Sequence record: LR746137
Origin: Escherichia phage vB_EcoM_UP17
Length of the DNA: 64,000 nucleotides
Strand: one strand, 5' to 3'
Made by a program: the position numbers and the translations under genes. This document shows, piece by piece, positions 168 to 43,054 of the stretch; within the stretch, counting starts at the first letter, position 1, and every line of letters starts with the position of its first letter. The notes under the pieces were generated by a model that was given only the letters and a program-made list of their open reading frames with translations, was not told the DNA's origin and ran no database searches.

Positions 168-2843
168 ATGTTTCCAATTCCAATATTTACTATTATGACC
201 AGCACTGGTGTCGTTCCTCTGCCAGCAGGTATTGTTAAAAAAGTAATCACTTTAGATTACCCAGATAATGCTGGTAATTCTAACAGCAGTTTAGCAATTT
301 TGCTTAATGATGGTAGATTGTTTACTCAAGGCGCAAACCTTTTTGGTGAGATTGCAGATGGAACTCGTAGTGCACGATTCAATAATTTCCACTTAGCTTC
401 TACTGTAGTAGCGGATGTGTTTACCGCAGATCGTTGTTTTGTTATTAAAACTAACAGTGGGGGATGGCAATATTCAGGATTGACAGCAGGATTGGTAGGA
501 TCTATAGCAGCAGGTGGTACGGACGCATGTGTAACTACTTGGACCAGCTTTCCATCTGTAATAACAGGGACTATCTCTTTAGCCAATCTTAAAGAGGTTA
601 AGGGAGGATATAACAACACTCTCTGGTTAATGAATAGTGGTGTTCTTTACGGATCTGGTCAAAACACAGTAGGCAGTTTAGGTGCAAGTACTACTAACGA
701 AGTTTCTACTCCTCGTCAGATAACAAGTGCAGCAGTTGCTTTTGATGCAGGTTACAACCAATGCTCTTATGTCAACAATGTGGGAACCTTGCGTGTTTGT
801 GGAGCTAGTAAAGGTTTAGCAGGTAATAATAACACAACAACAGCTTTTGTCAATGCCAAGATATCCGCTACTGAAACAGTGTATGTCAAAGATTACATCA
901 ATACAGTTTCCCAGACAATAGTTGTAGGAGATACCTCCGGTGGCACGGGTGCAGTAAACTACTTATATGTTAGATCTAATACAGAAACAACCTACACTAA
1001 ACTGGATACCTTTGCAGCAGGTTTCTCAACATGGAAATTTCCACCAAGCCGCCACTCTTTTTTCGTTGGGATCAATAATTCCTTGTGGGCTATTGGTAAG
1101 AACTACACTGCAAACTTAGGTTTGGGGTATGATTCTGCGAGCGGAGATCCACTTCAAGTGGGAAAACCAGTTAAACCTGAAGGAGTGGGTTCCTGGGATA
1201 TAAACAAGCTCACAAGCGTTCATACGCTGAATATGGATGTTACTAACCAATTAGGTTATCAAGGAACCTTTTTCGTTTATAATGGAGATATGTATTATTC
1301 CGGTATTTGGAAAGATGGAAAAGCCTCGTATCTGTTCAATAGTGGTCTAAACTATAATAAATTCACACCAATAGCAAGCTCCGTGATTACGGGTGATATT
1401 CTGGCAACTGGCTTAACTACGGATTCTTTAGGAATTTGTATTGTAGGTGGAACTAAACAGTTGACACATTCTGTTAGCCCAGAAGGAGGTAAACTTTTCA
1501 ATATTAAATATACTTCTTCTGCCCCTGCAAACATGACAATATCGTCTACTGGTTTAATGACTTTCCATGCAGAAGGTGGTTTTGATGCAGGTATGACAGC
1601 CTTAAACGCTGAAGGAACAACTTTATCAGATACCTCTGGAGGATATGCTTCAACATTGAGTGTTTACACCCCTAGCTTATCTGCGATGGATGTAGGAACA
1701 ACACAAACAATGGTAGCAGAAATAACGCCAACAGGAGCAGCAAGCTTACCTGGCATGGTTGTTGAGTATTTCTCTAATGACCCTACGGTAGCAACAGTTG
1801 ACCCCGTTACAGGCGTTATTACAGCGGTTGCTGATGGAGGTTGTCGTATCGGTTGTAGAGCAACTTATCAAGGTGTGGTAACTGCCGAAGATAGTTCTTA
1901 TCTCACAGTGAATGCTGTGGTGATTGTGATGGATTATGATTTGACGCAAGAAACTATTCCGGCGGATGTAAAGGTCAACAGGAGTAACCGTTATGCCAGG
2001 GCTTCTGGAGATATCCTTGTACCTACAGAGAGTTCTGCTCCCGTAGCACCTTTAGAATATGTTGGTACAACTCCACAAGGTAGACGTGTTGTAGCAGCCA
2101 ACCGTACACATATCTTTATCAACAATAACTTGACAACAGCTTCCCCGTGGTTGAAGACGAACTTGACAGTCACAGCATCAACAATCAACTCTCCGGTTGG
2201 AACTACGGCTAACACTTACAAGTTAACACCTTCTACAACTTCAGGACAACATATTTTATCAGCAGTGAATACAGCTTCTGATATTACAGCAGGTAAGCAC
2301 TGGGCGGCATCCGTATTCTTGAAGCCAGATGGGATCACTAAAGTGAAACTCAAATTGACTTCAGGAGATGAGATTAACGAAGGGACTTATGATCTTGTAG
2401 CTGGAACATTTACAGGTGCAGATGCAAACATAATCGATATGGGGAATGGTTGGTATCGTGTAATTCTACACAAAGTGACAGTTGCCAAACAAGCATCTAT
2501 AACCTATGAGATTATAGCTTTGAATGCAAGTGGATCAGACACTTTCGCAGGAGATGGTACGGCAGGTCTTATTGCTTGGGTTCCACAGCTTGAGATGGGG
2601 GATATGACAAATCCAGTTTGGGCGGGGACACCATTTGTTTGTTCTTATGCACGAGACACTACCAGTGCTGTTACCTTCACTATTCCTAAGAATGGACATA
2701 CTGGCGTGGACATTTACCACACTGATGGTACTGTGCAACGAGAGGTCTTCACTGGTACAGCTACAACTTGGATGTTGACGTTCACCGCCGCAAGTGCGGA
2801 TTGGGGATCGAAGTTCATTACAGGTTTGAAATATTACGACTAA
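168..2843 (+). CDS. Tail fibre / receptor-binding protein with Ig-like (Big_2-type) segment
   Basis: 891 aa, Gly/Ser/Thr-rich repeats, Ig-like stretch (VTAEDSSYLTVNAV), SD GGAGGG before ATG; only rightward gene in the left arm. Confidence 0.55.
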   Translation: MFPIPIFTIMTSTGVVPLPAGIVKKVITLDYPDNAGNSNSSLAILLNDGRLFTQGANLFGEIADGTRSARFNNFHLASTVVADVFTADRCFVIKTNSGGWQYSGLTAGLVGSIAAGGTDACVTTWTSFPSVITGTISLANLKEVKGGYNNTLWLMNSGVLYGSGQNTVGSLGASTTNEVSTPRQITSAAVAFDAGYNQCSYVNNVGTLRVCGASKGLAGNNNTTTAFVNAKISATETVYVKDYINTVSQTIVVGDTSGGTGAVNYLYVRSNTETTYTKLDTFAAGFSTWKFPPSRHSFFVGINNSLWAIGKNYTANLGLGYDSASGDPLQVGKPVKPEGVGSWDINKLTSVHTLNMDVTNQLGYQGTFFVYNGDMYYSGIWKDGKASYLFNSGLNYNKFTPIASSVITGDILATGLTTDSLGICIVGGTKQLTHSVSPEGGKLFNIKYTSSAPANMTISSTGLMTFHAEGGFDAGMTALNAEGTTLSDTSGGYASTLSVYTPSLSAMDVGTTQTMVAEITPTGAASLPGMVVEYFSNDPTVATVDPVTGVITAVADGGCRIGCRATYQGVVTAEDSSYLTVNAVVIVMDYDLTQETIPADVKVNRSNRYARASGDILVPTESSAPVAPLEYVGTTPQGRRVVAANRTHIFINNNLTTASPWLKTNLTVTASTINSPVGTTANTYKLTPSTTSGQHILSAVNTASDITAGKHWAASVFLKPDGITKVKLKLTSGDEINEGTYDLVAGTFTGADANIIDMGNGWYRVILHKVTVAKQASITYEIIALNASGSDTFAGDGTAGLIAWVPQLEMGDMTNPVWAGTPFVCSYARDTTSAVTFTIPKNGHTGVDIYHTDGTVQREVFTGTATTWMLTFTAASADWGSKFITGLKYYD

Positions 2844-2850
2844 TAAAAAA

Positions 2851-2879
2851 GGGAACCCGCAAAGGTTCCCTTTTCTTTT
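2851..2879. terminator. Bidirectional terminator between convergent genes
   Basis: GGGAACC-CGCAAA-GGTTCCC hairpin flanked by A-run and T-run. Confidence 0.6.
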
Positions 2880-2906
2880 ATAAAAACTCTTTATAAATCA
2901 ATAAGA

Positions 2907-3794
2907 TTAGAATGGGATATCATCGTCGAAGTCCATTGGAGGTTCTTCTTGATTGCTTGGAGTTGGTTCTGGTTGTGGTTCAGGTTTCTTCTCTTCTTTC
3001 TTCTCTTCTTTCTTAGGTTGTTCTGCGGAACCACGAATGGCAGCAGCAACTTTATCAGACAGAGCCAGAACTTTACGAGCAGAGTCAATCAGATCTTCTA
3101 CAGATACAGTCTTAATGGTATGGTCTTTACAAGCATTGAGAATAGCGTGACCAACAGATGCCCCAAGATCATAATCATTAATATCAACGCCACGAGATTC
3201 AGCAATTTCAGATTTCAGCGTGACAGTTGCAGATTGAACAACCCCAGCGATATCGAAAGCATCGCCTTTAACACCATTACGAATCAGTTCCAGTGCACCA
3301 TTTACTGCGTGACCAGTTTCCAGACCTACAGTATCACGTTTTTTATAGGACTGCTTAGGAGCAGCATCGTTGGAACCTTTATTGCCAGAAGATTTGTTAG
3401 ACTTCTGAACACCATCGGTAGACAATACTGTAATACGAGATTTTTTAGTATTGTAGTAAGTCTTACCGCCTTTATTATCAACGCGATCAATATCAATACT
3501 TACTTCTACACCTTTTTCAATAGTGATCCAATTATCACCTTCTTTGACTTGCAGGTTTTCATAACCTTCTTTCAGTTCAATGTCACCAAGAGAAATCCAA
3601 ACACCTTTCTCATCTGGTTTAGCACCTTTCTCTTTCAGAACAAGAGAAGCTCGGTGAGTTGAAACAATCGTTTTCCCTTCCCAATGAAAAGTTTTAGGTT
3701 CAGCGAATTTATCCAGTTTAACGTAGTCTACGATACCAGTTGCATAAGTTACGGTTTTGCCTTTACGATCAGTTTCAGTATTAATTACGGACAT
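2907..3794 (-). CDS. Single-stranded DNA-binding protein-like
   Basis: 295 aa, Gly/Lys-rich linker, acidic tail ending MDFDDDIPF (identical to bacterial SSB tip). Confidence 0.55.
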   Translation of the reverse strand: MSVINTETDRKGKTVTYATGIVDYVKLDKFAEPKTFHWEGKTIVSTHRASLVLKEKGAKPDEKGVWISLGDIELKEGYENLQVKEGDNWITIEKGVEVSIDIDRVDNKGGKTYYNTKKSRITVLSTDGVQKSNKSSGNKGSNDAAPKQSYKKRDTVGLETGHAVNGALELIRNGVKGDAFDIAGVVQSATVTLKSEIAESRGVDINDYDLGASVGHAILNACKDHTIKTVSVEDLIDSARKVLALSDKVAAAIRGSAEQPKKEEKKEEKKPEPQPEPTPSNQEEPPMDFDDDIPF

Positions 3795-5230: not shown

Positions 5231-5443
5231 TTAATCTTCCTCCAGATCAATTTCATTATAACAATGTATGCAGAAACCATCATTGTGCATATGTTGTTCA
5301 TAAGACATATCTTTACCACAAGACCAACAACGGATATCCCCATCGTCCCATTCACGTTCTTCTTCGCCTTCAAATTCATCTGGTAGGTAAGGCATACCAA
5401 AGTAGTCTAAATCGTAACTCATATCTTCTCCTACCGAGTCCAC
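5231..5443 (-). CDS. Small zinc-ribbon-like acidic protein
   Basis: 70 aa, CxxC...CxxC, acidic termini. Confidence 0.4.
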   Translation of the reverse strand: MDSVGEDMSYDLDYFGMPYLPDEFEGEEEREWDDGDIRCWSCGKDMSYEQHMHNDGFCIHCYNEIDLEED

Positions 5444-6009
5444 TCCTTACGTTGTTCAATATGTTCGAGCATATCGTTATACAATGTTTTAAGATGTGGA
5501 ACAACTCTTTGATCTTCTGTTTCAAAAAACTTTGTAAGCTGTTCTGCTTTAGCTTTCAACCAACAAAGATGTGCTTGGAGTTCCGTATCGAAACGACCGA
5601 GTGTTATGATACGTCCTCCGATTTTAATATGGGCCTTATACTTCTTACGATCCTTCTCATAATTACATCCTACCATTTGACCTGACTTTTTTCTGTAGGC
5701 TAAAAACTTATTAAGATTTCCAGAAATCATTAAGCAAGTATCAGGGGAGTAGACTCCCCCTCCCATAAGATCCTTATCAAGTTCCGAGTTTTCCCAGTCG
5801 TCCCAAGTTTCCAACCAAGAGTAGAAGTTGGAAAACAGCTTCCACTCTTCACAAACCGTCACTCCATGGTAAACGACATCTCTTGCCTGTTGGCAAGATG
5901 AATAACACCTTCCCAACATTGCCATCCATTTCATATAAGCAGGGTGCATAACCCCTTCAGGAGATCTTGCAGTAATGCTCCCATCAAAAACACCGTGACC
6001 ATAAACCAT
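5431..6009 (-). CDS. AP2-domain DNA-binding protein, homing-endonuclease-like
   Basis: YMKWMAMLGRCY...VTVCEEW motif plus AP2-like YKAHIKIGGRIITLGRFDTELQAH; sits next to polymerase gene. Confidence 0.45.
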   Translation of the reverse strand: MVYGHGVFDGSITARSPEGVMHPAYMKWMAMLGRCYSSCQQARDVVYHGVTVCEEWKLFSNFYSWLETWDDWENSELDKDLMGGGVYSPDTCLMISGNLNKFLAYRKKSGQMVGCNYEKDRKKYKAHIKIGGRIITLGRFDTELQAHLCWLKAKAEQLTKFFETEDQRVVPHLKTLYNDMLEHIEQRKEWTR

Positions 6010-6038
6010 AAAAACTCCTTAATAAGTAATAGGTTAGA

Positions 6039-8636
6039 CTAATGGCAACTCGCCCAGGAATTACCCACATCATATCCAGCAGTAAGCTGAACATTAAGAT
6101 TGTAAAATTCTCCAGCCTTAGTAACAGCTAAGGCAGCAAGTTCACCTGCCCGACTATAGGCTGTAAACCATCCACCTTTGGGAGATTCATGAATGTTAGC
6201 CCAAATTTGTCCCGTCTCTTTTTCCTTATTATGCTTCCATTCTTCAACTTTAGCAAGGCATTCTTTATCAATTTTCTTTTGTTCTTCAGGATCGTCTACT
6301 TTCTTCCAACCTAATGATTCAGGTGAAAACCATTTGAATTCTACAAGGTTACGAGAAACTTCAAGCTGGGCTTCATCGTGATATGCAATCATTTGTTGCA
6401 CGAAGTCTTTATTCTTCCAGTCATCTTTAAAGAAGTCAACACTTAGCCCTTCTTCTTCGATCATGTCATCATAAATAACCATTGCACGTTTAGCACAGAT
6501 AACCCCACCACTTTGGAACAGAGAGTTAAGAATCGCGTGAGCAGAACGAGTAGGAACCTTACGACCGTCAATACCCAAAACATATTGTTTACCAGTCTTA
6601 ACCCAAAAATCGTTTAAACGTTCTTTAAGACGCGCCAATGGGAATGCAGCTTCCCAGAAAGCATCGAACACCAATTGACCTGTAAACTTGTCGCTACCAA
6701 TTGTTTTAGCAACCTTGTCGGCTTGTGCACCATAGGTAATACCATACTTAACAGATTTAGCAGGACTACGTTCAAATTTACGTCCAATAGTTTCAGTGAT
6801 ACGTTTTGCCATCATTGTGTGAACATCGTTAGGTTTCTCTAACAACAGAGCGTTACAATATTCGTGTGGCTCCGGCTCGTACCGCCAACAGTAGTGTGAT
6901 TCAATTTTTGCTTCCAAAGAGTCGAAGTCGTAGCCGATCTGGAAGTATTTAGGAACCTCTACACCAAACAAGTTACGCATCTCCCACCCAAACAAAGATG
7001 TGACACGAGGAATATTAGCTACAGATCTATGCTTCATACGAGAGGTTGCAGCATCACATGTAGCGGCTGGGGTAGGAATACGCCCATCCGCCCTTACTGC
7101 GGCTAAGAAACCTTTATCGTATTCTTGATCTTCTTCATCTTCTTCCCAATCAGCACCGCCACCTAAAATAGAGTTCCTACGATGCTTATACGTTAAGTAT
7201 TCTACAATCTGTGTAGCATAAGGGAATTTCTCACCTAAAGCTTGCAGGTTAGGACAGATTTCTTTTTCCTGACCTTTGGTAAAACATGGGTTAGTCAATA
7301 CTTTAAGACCGCGACCTTTACCTTTTGCTATACGCTCTTGAATCTTCCTTTCCAGGGTTTCCGGTGTGCACTCCAGATGATCACAACGATCCTGACAAAA
7401 ATTAGAAGATAGGGTTTGCTCAACGTAAGCTCGAATACCTTTCTGAAGTTCTTCCTCGCTCTTTTTAATCTTGGTGCCAGATTTAAGAGTCAAGTCTTTA
7501 TCTTTATATTCAGACGGTACCCAACCTAATCCTACAAGCCAGTTTTTAATATGGGTTGTATCGTTCAATGTTGCAGGAATGTTAGGATCACATAGAGGCT
7601 CATCTGCTGCAACTGGCAGTTTCCACTCTTTCCCCAACATAACTAACCACCAATCGCCATCCCTCTCTTCCAAATGACCATCATGTTTCTTAGCAAAATT
7701 GATCATATGGTTAGTTGGCTCTAAGTTCTTTTTAATTTGCAACTTAGGTGGAATAAAAGCCTTAAGATAACCTTTTGTTGCTGGTTTAGGTGGCAAAATA
7801 GGCTCAACAAGTAAACGAAGACGCTCCATTTCTGCATCCAAAAAAGCAAGGTTCTCTTCTGCTTGTTTCATGTTAAAAGCAAACCCACGGTGTTCCTGGC
7901 GTGTAATAATGTCTGCTACACGTTGTTCAAGTTCAAATGGACCTTCCCATTTATCATAATCACCCCATTCTTCCATAAGGTAATTATATACGCTCGTATT
8001 GGCTTTGTTGTCATAGATACAGTAATAAAGCATATCCGCAGCAAAAGTCTTAAATCGATCTTCTTCTGGAATCTCTTTACGGAAATCTATTTTTACATCA
8101 CCACCTGCTTTTCGAGAAAGTGCTGCCAAGCTATGTCCTGATTTGCCCTCAATCTTTCGATCTGGGTTTAACACTTTACTCAAAATCAAGGAGTCAATAA
8201 GTTTTACCTTATTTTTGCCCCACGTATTATATTTAACACTGTAATCTAATCCATAAAACAGTTTTGTAGCCAACCAGTCGTAGTTGATACCGTTGTGAGC
8301 CACAGCCATTTCAACCAGATATTCAGGCTTGTCTTTAAAATAACCTTCATGATTAATAAAATCTGGGAAATCTTTTAGTTGAAAATGTGTGTAATCTTGC
8401 GCCACATACTCTTTAAGAACATATGTGTATTTACCATCTGACTCTTCATAAGGACGCCCATCAAAGATGTATTTAGGGCCATCGTGGAAAGCTACTATTT
8501 CTCCTGTTTCATGGTTCTCTAAGACAATACAGTGCATTTGAAATGTGTCTTTGAGACGATAAGGACTAGCTAAATAATCAATAGTGTCATTATTCAACAA
8601 TCCGTTTGCTTCAATATCCCATGTAAACTTACTCAC
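6039..8636 (-). CDS. DNA polymerase, family A, with 3'-5' exonuclease domain
   Basis: 865 aa, Exo I-like WDIEANGL, motif B-like KYGITYGAQ, motif C-like YHDEAQLEV. Confidence 0.85.
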   Translation of the reverse strand: MSKFTWDIEANGLLNNDTIDYLASPYRLKDTFQMHCIVLENHETGEIVAFHDGPKYIFDGRPYEESDGKYTYVLKEYVAQDYTHFQLKDFPDFINHEGYFKDKPEYLVEMAVAHNGINYDWLATKLFYGLDYSVKYNTWGKNKVKLIDSLILSKVLNPDRKIEGKSGHSLAALSRKAGGDVKIDFRKEIPEEDRFKTFAADMLYYCIYDNKANTSVYNYLMEEWGDYDKWEGPFELEQRVADIITRQEHRGFAFNMKQAEENLAFLDAEMERLRLLVEPILPPKPATKGYLKAFIPPKLQIKKNLEPTNHMINFAKKHDGHLEERDGDWWLVMLGKEWKLPVAADEPLCDPNIPATLNDTTHIKNWLVGLGWVPSEYKDKDLTLKSGTKIKKSEEELQKGIRAYVEQTLSSNFCQDRCDHLECTPETLERKIQERIAKGKGRGLKVLTNPCFTKGQEKEICPNLQALGEKFPYATQIVEYLTYKHRRNSILGGGADWEEDEEDQEYDKGFLAAVRADGRIPTPAATCDAATSRMKHRSVANIPRVTSLFGWEMRNLFGVEVPKYFQIGYDFDSLEAKIESHYCWRYEPEPHEYCNALLLEKPNDVHTMMAKRITETIGRKFERSPAKSVKYGITYGAQADKVAKTIGSDKFTGQLVFDAFWEAAFPLARLKERLNDFWVKTGKQYVLGIDGRKVPTRSAHAILNSLFQSGGVICAKRAMVIYDDMIEEEGLSVDFFKDDWKNKDFVQQMIAYHDEAQLEVSRNLVEFKWFSPESLGWKKVDDPEEQKKIDKECLAKVEEWKHNKEKETGQIWANIHESPKGGWFTAYSRAGELAALAVTKAGEFYNLNVQLTAGYDVGNSWASCH

Positions 8637-41851: not shown

Positions 41852-43054
41852 ATGGCGAAGACGTTAGAACAGTATATAGGAGAATGTAAACCAATAGCGG
41901 AAGCTAAAGGATATGAGATTATAGGGATTGTAGAGCCATTTAAAGGTGTGCACACGAAGATGATCAACTTCTGCCCTAATCATGGGGAGTGGAGAACATC
42001 CACATTTGCCAATTTTAAACGTGGTAAGTCTGGTTGCCCTAGGTGCAAAAATGAGAAAGCAAGACAAGACAACAGTAAAAACCTAGATTATTACCTTTCG
42101 GAATGTAAGCCTATTGCTGAAGCTAAGGGAATCGAGATTTTAGGCATTAATGGAGAGTTTATAGGTGTACATACAAAGATGATCAACCTTTGTCCTGAGC
42201 ACGGGGAATGGCGAACATTAACATTTCATAATCTTAAGGGTGGTAGTGGTTGTCCTAAATGCGGTAACAAAAGATCTAGGAATTCTAAAATACTTCCAGA
42301 CGATCAGCACATACAAGACTTCATTAATACAGGAAAGTTTAAAGAGGGTACAATCTTCACTAAAACAGATAAAAAACGAGGCCGCGATTCTTTATGGTGT
42401 GTAGAGTGTCCTGCCTGCTCTCACGATGAGTATGTGCAAGCTGGGGTGTGTGATGGTAAGTTTTATGTCGCAGGGAATGACCTTAAACAAGGGAAGATTC
42501 CTTGCCGTTGTGCAACTAACTGTCATTACACAGAAGCACAGATTACCTATAGGGTAAAAAAGGCAGTAGAAAGGAAAGGGTATATCTGGGTAGGTTGGAT
42601 CGGGAAACCGTCTGTAAGATTAGGTAAGTTTAAATATGGATGTAAGAAACATGGGGTACAAATAGGACGTGCCAGTGGTTTGTTAAATCATGGCACTGGT
42701 TGTCCGCAATGTGCTAACCAGACACAACAACAATGTTACATTAACCACATTCATGATGAACAAGGTATTCTCTGTGCTTTGAAATTTGGAATTGCCAATA
42801 ATAGTGATCGCCGTATCAAAAAACAAAATAGTCGTAATGTGTTTACTATGAAACAGGTCCAAGTGTGGCACTTCCCTACTGTGAAGCAATGCAAAGATGC
42901 AGAAAAGCGTTGTAAGCGTGTCCTTCACACGGAAGCAGTGAGCAAATATTCTATGCCAGATGGCTACACAGAGACAGTGGAGTTATCTTGCATGGCATCA
43001 ATACAAAATATTTATAAACTTTATGGTGGAACATTACAGGAGGAAACATGTTAG
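41852..43054 (+). CDS. Zn-ribbon repeat protein, possible nuclease-like C-terminal domain
   Basis: Duplicated HTKMINxCPxHGEWRTxTF...GCPxC module; C-terminal ALKFGIANNSDRR. Confidence 0.4.
   Translation: MAKTLEQYIGECKPIAEAKGYEIIGIVEPFKGVHTKMINFCPNHGEWRTSTFANFKRGKSGCPRCKNEKARQDNSKNLDYYLSECKPIAEAKGIEILGINGEFIGVHTKMINLCPEHGEWRTLTFHNLKGGSGCPKCGNKRSRNSKILPDDQHIQDFINTGKFKEGTIFTKTDKKRGRDSLWCVECPACSHDEYVQAGVCDGKFYVAGNDLKQGKIPCRCATNCHYTEAQITYRVKKAVERKGYIWVGWIGKPSVRLGKFKYGCKKHGVQIGRASGLLNHGTGCPQCANQTQQQCYINHIHDEQGILCALKFGIANNSDRRIKKQNSRNVFTMKQVQVWHFPTVKQCKDAEKRCKRVLHTEAVSKYSMPDGYTETVELSCMASIQNIYKLYGGTLQEETC

Follow-up and report, generated by a model that had tools for sequence, protein, structure and literature searches.

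A probable free-standing IPA-HNH homing endonuclease gene at the 3' end of the DNA polymerase gene in Escherichia phage vB_EcoM_UP17

Why do some relatives of Escherichia phage vB_EcoM_UP17 carry an additional gene directly after their DNA polymerase gene, when most close relatives do not? We addressed this question in a window of 64,000 nucleotides (nt) from this phage (sequence record LR746137), in which an open reading frame (ORF) for a 192-amino-acid (aa) protein adjoins the gene for a family A DNA polymerase. An earlier note had described this ORF as a homing-endonuclease-like gene with an AP2-like segment, lying directly upstream of the polymerase gene. The motifs that it quoted were all found in the protein (YMKWMAMLGRC at residues 25-35, VTVCEEW at 50-56 and YKAHIKIGGRIITLGRFDTELQAH at 124-147). 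The two genes do adjoin, but not in the order described: both are on the minus strand, with the polymerase gene at 6039..8636, so transcription reaches the ORF second, 29 nt downstream (3') of the polymerase gene, and the ORF is upstream only by plus strand coordinates. We consider it probable that the ORF belongs to the IPA-HNH family of homing endonuclease genes and is free-standing; it would home to the polymerase-3'-end/intergenic site of rV5-like phages. DNA cleavage by the protein, its exact target and its current homing activity are predicted.

The family assignment comes from Gp59 of Vibrio phage ICP1. IPA-HNH homing endonuclease genes were defined on three proteins including Gp59 (Barth, Dunham and Seed, 2023; PMC10448857); of the founding set Gp59, Gp115 and Gp209, our homology comparison covered Gp59. 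Their N-terminal domain is too divergent for the HNH_3 Pfam model and was linked to HNH by HHsearch, their C-terminal domain is AP2, and the genes, of which 29% have a DNA polymerase gene nearby, are abundant in Barbaviruses and Flaumdraviruses (PMC10448857). BLASTP matched Gp59 to the 192-aa protein at 9e-18 (32% identity over 150 residues), and hhalign aligned the two over 172 columns (probability 99.9%, E = 1.5e-32) with the LDKDI...Y.PE.C...N motif kept. A Gp59-homologous N-terminal domain, a C-terminal AP2 domain and a place beside a DNA polymerase gene were all found for the 192-aa protein. When the phage collection was searched by tblastn, 1,433 records matched, with Vibrio (816) and Rheinheimera (115) phages followed by Bacillus, Escherichia and Pseudomonas phages; some relatives had two or three homologous places per genome. 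To judge by sequence homology, the gene is another instance of a gene type described in 2023. The type is not new, since it was described then and since some related records already read "HNH endonuclease" or "AP2 domain-containing protein". Six names linked to the subfamily Stephanstirmvirinae, including Phapecoctavirus and Justusliebigvirus, did not occur in the supplementary files of PMC10448857 that we examined, and a literature search found no paper on the 192-aa gene in phapecoctaviruses.

The distribution of the gene among related phages carries the second part of the argument. The source phage is phAPEC8-like (genus Phapecoctavirus, subfamily Stephanstirmvirinae); the 5.3-kb region around the ORF is 98.8% identical to that of Shigella phage SF1-1 and, outside the ORF, 98.7% identical to that of phAPEC8. 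Empty sites were sought with a probe of 86 nt across the phAPEC8 junction (gp080 start, hairpin and polymerase end), and this junction was contiguous in 52 phage records. Over the full length of the 5.3-kb query, six records held an ORF flanked as in Phapecoctavirus, namely SF1-1, 536P1, nieznany (with its RefSeq copy), iGC_PHA_EC001 and EF1-1, and phiWec181 had a 73%-identical homologue at the polymerase-3' site. The comparison proposed in the earlier note, for presence or absence of the ORF in related phages, therefore returned empty sites in most phAPEC8-like phages, diverged alleles at the same junction and a decayed remnant (see below). Synteny with conserved flanks and no mobility signature, which the note had named as the pattern that would speak against it, was not seen: mobility signatures were present. 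Among close relatives the gene is present or absent at one precise site, as is looked for in homing. In the unverified partial genome of Escherichia phage MRostami-2023b, a run of N stands at the place of the ORF between carrier-type flanks (TAG TCTAACCTATTGC...AAGGAG...NNNNNNNNN TAGGAGAAGAT) and is probably an assembly gap over the ORF. Several of the records searched, among them MG065650.1 and OP562383.1, carry host labels ("Campylobacter phage B15", "Acinetobacter phage vB_AbaM_ABPW7") that may be unreliable, the regions searched being 95-98% identical to E. coli phapecoctaviruses.

Alignment of empty and occupied sites gave the exact boundaries. An empty site reads polymerase stop, TCTAACGTATTGTTTTATAAGG, GGCTTCTGCCCCTTTA, TAGGAGAAGAT and the gp080 ATG, and an occupied site reads polymerase stop, TCTAACCTATTACTTATTAAGG, AGTTTTT-ATG...ORF...CGG, TAGGAGAAGAT and the gp080 ATG. 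The left side is shared up to ...TATAAGG, then the ORF stands in place of 16 nt of a GGGGC-TTCT-GCCCC hairpin, and TAGGAGAAGAT follows. The remaining first arm of the hairpin, AAGGGG in empty sites, is the AAGGAG ribosome-binding site of the ORF, and the polymerase-proximal part of the 29-nt spacer is homologous to the empty-site spacer. In empty sites, such as that of phAPEC8 (locus positions 1724-1772), TTTAT comes after the hairpin in the stretch from the polymerase gene to gp080, and together they may form a terminator or an RNA-stability element. As insertion of the ORF removes the hairpin, phages with and without the gene may differ in transcription or read-through into gp080-082.

The same place is used outside the genus. 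A homologue with at least 60% amino-acid identity was found in 38 records, the majority of them Justusliebigvirus. A homologue directly follows the polymerase gene in Justusliebigvirus alia, ESCO32, Klebsiella phage KP2025 and ICP1. In alia, ESCO32 and KP2025 it is 62-78% identical, begins 27-29 nt after the polymerase stop and is followed by a nucleotidyltransferase gene or another ORF. The polymerase is the only flank common to all the occupied sites (Phapecoctavirus, Justusliebigvirus, KP2025, ICP1). In KP2025 the polymerase is annotated as two coding sequences 477 bp apart (locus positions 2714-3190), upstream of the AP2 homologue; this separation may be a further insertion (an intron or intein fragment) or a frameshift in the polymerase gene. 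Synteny after the polymerase gene in these four groups would also be expected of an ordinary accessory replication gene, inherited vertically, deleted in many lineages and neither mobile nor a nuclease, and its base composition, which is like that of the flanks, agrees with such an origin. We nevertheless hold this explanation to be highly improbable: across genera only the polymerase-side flank is shared and the downstream neighbor differs, the empty sites are clean, with a hairpin instead of the gene and no remnant of it, and the family is multi-copy and neighborhood-hopping in ICP1, Barba and Flaumdra phages (PMC10448857), as the two to three homologous places in some relatives also illustrate.

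Decay and allele age bear on the same question. In VivaForever and Eryne the polymerase gene is followed by a spacer of 137 nt (locus positions 2394-2530 in both), which keeps the ORF 5' untranslated region, the ATG and a degenerate form of the last ~110 nt, with an internal deletion of ~470 bp; the C-terminal helical region survives there in degenerate form. The records of both phages annotate a 31-aa "hypothetical protein" on this remnant. An internal deletion is compatible with loss of a vertically inherited gene, but the age of the alleles is not. Between the source phage and nieznany or iGC_PHA_EC001, synonymous divergence (dS) of the ORF was ~1.0, whereas over the last 300 polymerase codons of the same pairs it was 0.34 (nieznany) and 0.15 (iGC_PHA_EC001). 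The ratio of non-synonymous to synonymous divergence (dN/dS) among ORF alleles was 0.06-0.20. By these measures the ORF alleles are older than their flanks and under purifying selection. A history discordant with the flanks and a cycle of invasion and decay, both looked for in homing genes, are therefore represented by the dS contrast and by the VivaForever/Eryne remnant. The iGC_PHA_EC001 allele is almost identical to that of the source phage in its 3' 150 nt and diverged in the remainder, a sign of recombination inside the ORF.

A third line of evidence is a hot spot of variation at the polymerase 3' end. Compared with phAPEC8, there were 15 mismatches in positions 6011-6051 against a background of ~1 per 100 nt over ~3.9 kb. 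Of the 15, seven lay within 13 nt of the end of the polymerase gene, and each of these was synonymous. Among ten phapecoctaviruses, the final 15 nt of the polymerase gene had a nucleotide diversity of 0.292, compared with 0.019 for the 156 nt before them, while the C-terminal peptide ...WASCH* was conserved apart from one S-to-T change. This hot spot supports a putative target in this region, being what an arms race fought at the DNA level over a site of recognition or cleavage would produce.

We then turn to the protein, beginning with its better-defined part. The AlphaFold2 model of the whole protein was built from 49 homologues (predicted local distance difference test score, pLDDT, 95.8; predicted template modelling score, pTM, 0.87). 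Foldseek ranked AP2 domains first for residues ~113-160, where the model has a three-stranded sheet packed on a helix together with an AP2-like sequence, as in AP2/ERF domains, and the family profile matched the AP2 protein WRI1 of the PDB (E = 1.2e-5). Pfam and NCBIfam scans of the 192-aa protein gave no meaningful match; Pfam AP2 (PF00847) did not match it even at E <= 10, the gathering threshold not being reached. At E <= 0.01, Pfam AP2 did match 12 of the 49 close homologues and 18 of the 123 representatives from a profile search with the N-terminal domain. The AP2-like segment of the earlier note was thus borne out by the model fold, Foldseek, WRI1 and the homologues. The hidden Markov model search that it proposed for AP2 and HNH-associated domains succeeded in part, AP2 being reached in some homologues and not in the 192-aa protein itself, and no HNH model being matched. 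Searches of PDB sequences (phmmer with the protein, hmmsearch with the family profiles) returned AP2 domains and no HNH chain; a match to deoxycytidine kinase was regarded as chance. The architecture found, a nuclease-fold-like N-terminal domain followed by AP2, is typical for homing endonucleases of phages.

Within the superfamily of His-Me fingers, the catalytic His stands at the C-terminal end of strand 1, often preceded by an acidic residue that aids metal binding, and the helix supplies an Asn or His from its first turn as a metal ligand (PMC5714182). PacI has no catalytic His and uses a Tyr from the inter-strand loop instead (PMC5714182). The N-terminal domain of the 192-aa protein shows the beta-beta-alpha-metal fold of this superfamily in our models: DSSP assigned strands to residues 75-78 and 93-96 and a helix to 97-103 of the whole-protein model, and a separate model of residues 1-112 (pLDDT 92) gave four helices, a strand at 76-78, a loop, a strand at 93-95 and a helix from 97. 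An acidic residue (D78) precedes the catalytic position, and an Asn (N100) lies in the first turn of the helix. Across alignments of 49, 30 and 123 homologues D78, K79, Y87 and C92 were invariant and D80 and N100 invariant or at least 90% conserved, and an xLDKDx (LDKD-type) motif was kept in 133 of the 148 best representatives. From the models we infer that fold and metal ligands are as expected for a His-Me finger, with Lys at the general-base position, and that Y87 or K79 could act in catalysis. A divergent beta-beta-alpha-metal fold that is PacI-like is the best description of the domain. Nuclease activity is advanced as a prediction, because no canonical HNH model matched and a Lys takes the place of the catalytic His. 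The description of the gene as homing-endonuclease-like nevertheless holds, on the homology to Gp59 and the IPA-HNH family and on the mobility signatures, with activity predicted.

Several observations weigh against a homing endonuclease gene. The position of the catalytic His is occupied by Lys79, which is invariant, and two of the three His-less His-Me groups are thought to be inactive (PMC5714182). No Pfam HNH model matched the 192-aa protein or any of the 49 and 123 homologues; hhalign of the N-terminal profile against a 35-sequence HNH_3 alignment (from a gp80 search) gave a probability of 0.1%, and against the single HNH_3 endonucleases ICP1 gp80 and gp28 it found nothing. The HHsearch link to HNH reported in PMC10448857 was hence not reproduced by sequence comparison, the only link being the structural one to PacI. 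The GC content of the ORF, overall and at third codon positions (GC3), was not usefully different from that of the flanks, and occupation of the same slot across genera under strong purifying selection also fits a useful, domesticated function. At the polymerase end, the gene-less nepoznato has a GCGAGCTGCCATTAG tail identical to that of the carrier nieznany, and there are at least four different recodings of the tail among gene-less phages. The idea that the recoding is a carrier-specific mark of immunity was dropped, as the same recoding occurs in gene-less nepoznato and others occur among empty sites; the tail is for these reasons taken as a site-level hot spot only and not as proof of immunity. 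The hot spot could reflect past invasions or escape instead of current immunity.

Much of this would be accommodated if the protein descended from a homing endonuclease but had been domesticated and were nuclease-dead, an AP2 protein that binds DNA sequence-specifically and is passed on and exchanged by ordinary recombination rather than by its own cleavage. Such a binder might, for example, act on transcription near the replication genes, by repressing or tuning it, or interfere with co-infecting relatives. The Lys in place of the catalytic His (His-less His-Me groups being often inactive; PMC5714182), the lack of an HNH profile match, the strong purifying selection and the constant position across genera agree with it, and the CapR and CapR+AP2 "CasPR" repressors provide precedents (bioRxiv 10.64898/2026.02.23.707548; PMC10448857). 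However, D78, K79, Y87, C92 and N100 are invariant or nearly so at active-site positions, which is unexpected if catalysis had been lost, and the 192-aa protein has no CapR domain. The gene is also dispensable, because most close relatives are without it and one lineage has let it decay, and the synonymous hot spot at the polymerase end is predicted by an arms race over cutting or targeting, not by a housekeeping regulator. We regard a domesticated binder as unlikely, and an IPA-HNH homing endonuclease gene as the better account of the ORF.

The N-terminal domain has a much wider distribution than the gene itself. A profile search of 1.84 billion proteins returned 40,062 representative clusters (50% identity) at E <= 1e-3, 1,713 of them at E <= 1e-30, and no Pfam model matched the domain in any of the 172 proteins scanned. 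Among tandem-duplicated relatives, one copy is without the DKD and N residues and the other keeps both. Our literature search found no biochemical study of this domain family. We tentatively suggest, as a possibility well short of probable, that the domain represents a very large, uncurated His-Me branch of at least 40,000 clusters, in which a Lys constitutively stands for the catalytic His (D-K-D) and the omega loop has an invariant Tyr. Its catalysis might be PacI-like or of a new kind and drive homing at rV5-type polymerase 3' ends or, if catalytically dead, the domain might mark widespread homing-endonuclease-like selfish genes that spread without cutting.

For an active homing endonuclease, the following sequence of events can be proposed. 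The ORF would have no promoter and be translated off the replication-gene transcript by means of its own AAGGAG. On co-infection with a gene-less relative, the AP2 and helical parts would bind the empty genome in its polymerase-3'-end/intergenic region, where the GGGGCTTCTGCCCC hairpin, present in empty sites only, is a plausible, if speculative, binding element. AP2 domains favor GC-rich DNA (PMC10448857). More speculatively still, AP2 might recognize the G4/C4 hairpin and the cut might fall ~20-35 nt off, in the hypervariable polymerase codons. The beta-beta-alpha-metal domain would nick or cut nearby, most likely in the last polymerase codons, and recombinational repair from the carrier genome, the general behavior of homing endonucleases, would transfer a copy of the ORF, together with adjacent markers, to the cut genome. 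The carrier genome itself would presumably be immune, because it has lost the hairpin to the ORF and has 15 substitutions in the flanking 41 nt.

The features of the locus are given in Table 1. On sequence grounds the ORF is a real gene and not a chance reading frame, because PHROG 953 ("HNH endonuclease") matches the protein (E = 2e-68), 78 homologues are found in the database, dN/dS is low as given above and an AAGGAG ribosome-binding site is present 5 nt 5' of the ATG. Other PHROGs with the "HNH endonuclease" label matched more weakly, to either the N-terminal or the AP2-like part. The TAG of the ORF shares one base with GGAG, from which the small gene that follows takes its ribosome-binding site. 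A consensus scan for promoters and terminators found none specific to the ORF, and the one terminator-like hairpin inside it was at chance level. The ORF is accordingly most simply read as co-transcribed with the polymerase gene, and probably is. No paralogues of the ORF were found within the window, and PADLOC gave no match for the protein.

Table 1. Coordinates of the ORF, its predicted domains and the neighboring features in the window
Feature	Position	Strand	Remarks
Small conserved gene, 63 aa, phAPEC8 gp080 homologue	5231..5422	minus	Downstream neighbor in Phapecoctavirus; phrog_25582, E = 5e-47
Downstream junction	5423..5433	minus	ORF TAG 5431-5433; GGAG ribosome-binding site 5428-5431; TAGGAGAAGAT common to empty sites
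Homing-endonuclease-like ORF, free-standing	5431..6009	minus	192 aa, ATG start, TAG stop; IPA-HNH family, divergent HNH-like and AP2 domains (predicted)
C-terminal helical region, residues 161-192	5434..5529	minus	Helices 161-164 and 170-185 in model; no family assignment
AP2 DNA-binding domain, residues ~113-160	5530..5673	minus	Three strands and helix
N-terminal domain, residues 1-112	5674..6009	minus	Four helices, then beta-beta-alpha unit; putative nuclease domain
Beta-beta-alpha core, residues 75-103	5701..5787	minus	D78-K79-D80 around end of strand 1; Y87-S88-P89 and C92 in loop before strand 2; N100 in helix
Spacer between polymerase stop and ORF start, 29 nt	6010..6038	minus	Ribosome-binding site AAGGAG at 6015-6020
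Last five polymerase codons, A-S-C-H-stop	6039..6053	minus	Synonymous hot spot; candidate recognition/cleavage region
Family A DNA polymerase gene, intein-free allele, 865 aa	6039..8636	minus	Upstream neighbor; Pfam DNA_pol_A, E = 1.4e-13

The polymerase gene is itself a site of insertion in relatives. Some of these have an in-frame, intein-like insert at the position equivalent to ~6888-6893, after residue 582; it is 245 aa long in anhysbys, iGC_PHA_EC001 and ESCO32 (CVPMD...ITITGN then Cys), whereas nieznany, ukendt and nepoznato have a larger one (3570-nt gene), and the PaulScherrer record reads "intein-containing DNA polymerase precursor". Intein and downstream ORF assort independently, all four combinations having been seen. 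Elsewhere in the window, the second candidate that the earlier note had placed at 41852-43054 does exist, on the plus strand, as a 400-aa protein with two DUF723 zinc-ribbon modules. It has three stretches of CapR homology, a weak C-terminal match of MUG113/T5orf172 type and a match to phrog_681 ("endonuclease"). It is unrelated to the 192-aa protein, and its architecture is that of the T5orf172-type homing endonuclease described for ICP1. In relatives, this slot is occupied, over a span of similar length, by alleles so diverged that they do not align (65-100% coverage).

The 192-aa gene has been labelled inconsistently in related records ("hypothetical protein", "HNH endonuclease" or "AP2 domain-containing protein"), and it can now be annotated as an IPA-HNH-type free-standing homing endonuclease gene with predicted activity. 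With an ORF after the gene and, in relatives, an intein inside it, the polymerase 3' end in Stephanstirmvirinae is a hot spot of selfish elements, which is relevant to polymerase-based phylogeny and taxonomy and to phage engineering at this locus. For enzymology, an active-site-like D-K-D...Y...N arrangement is kept without the canonical His in a very large family to which no Pfam model corresponds. A single site with alleles that are empty, occupied, decayed or recoded makes a ready natural experiment.

Among known systems, the T4-type free-standing homing endonucleases, such as MobE and SegG, are, like the 192-aa ORF, encoded by intergenic selfish ORFs beside a conserved essential gene, with presence and absence among relatives and an expected co-conversion of flanking markers. 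They belong to another nuclease family than the 192-aa protein, which is known from sequence alone. The canonical HNH_3 (HNN)-AP2 endonucleases that phages and cyanobacteria encode (His-Me group 2; Magnani et al., 2004, cited by PMC10448857, PMC2248197 and PMC5714182) likewise place a nuclease-fold domain before AP2 and are free-standing, dispersed and degenerating in phage genomes (PMC2248197). In both alignments, 21 residues separate the dyad position from the helix Asn. However, the N-terminal domain of the 192-aa protein has no detectable profile similarity to HNH_3, and the dyad is D-K where theirs is D/N-H. PacI (PDB 3m7k/3ldy; His-Me group 20) has no sequence-level similarity to the 192-aa protein and is without AP2. 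The CapR/CasPR binders (bioRxiv 10.64898/2026.02.23.707548) share a phage-encoded AP2 domain for sequence-specific DNA binding and are a precedent for a non-cutting function. Membership of the 192-aa protein among them was rejected, as it gave no CapR match: CasPRs need the CapR zinc finger and have no nuclease-like domain, whereas the 192-aa protein keeps an active-site-like motif. ICP1 Gp59 differs in length (272 against 192 aa), with a ~60-residue N-terminal extension found only in Gp59, and in its setting, the 192-aa protein being from Stephanstirmvirinae coliphages. The two are alike in the homology of both their N-terminal and AP2 domains, in the LDKD...Y.P..C...N motif and in position, gp59 directly following gp58, the gene for an rV5-like DNA polymerase, as the 192-aa ORF follows its own.

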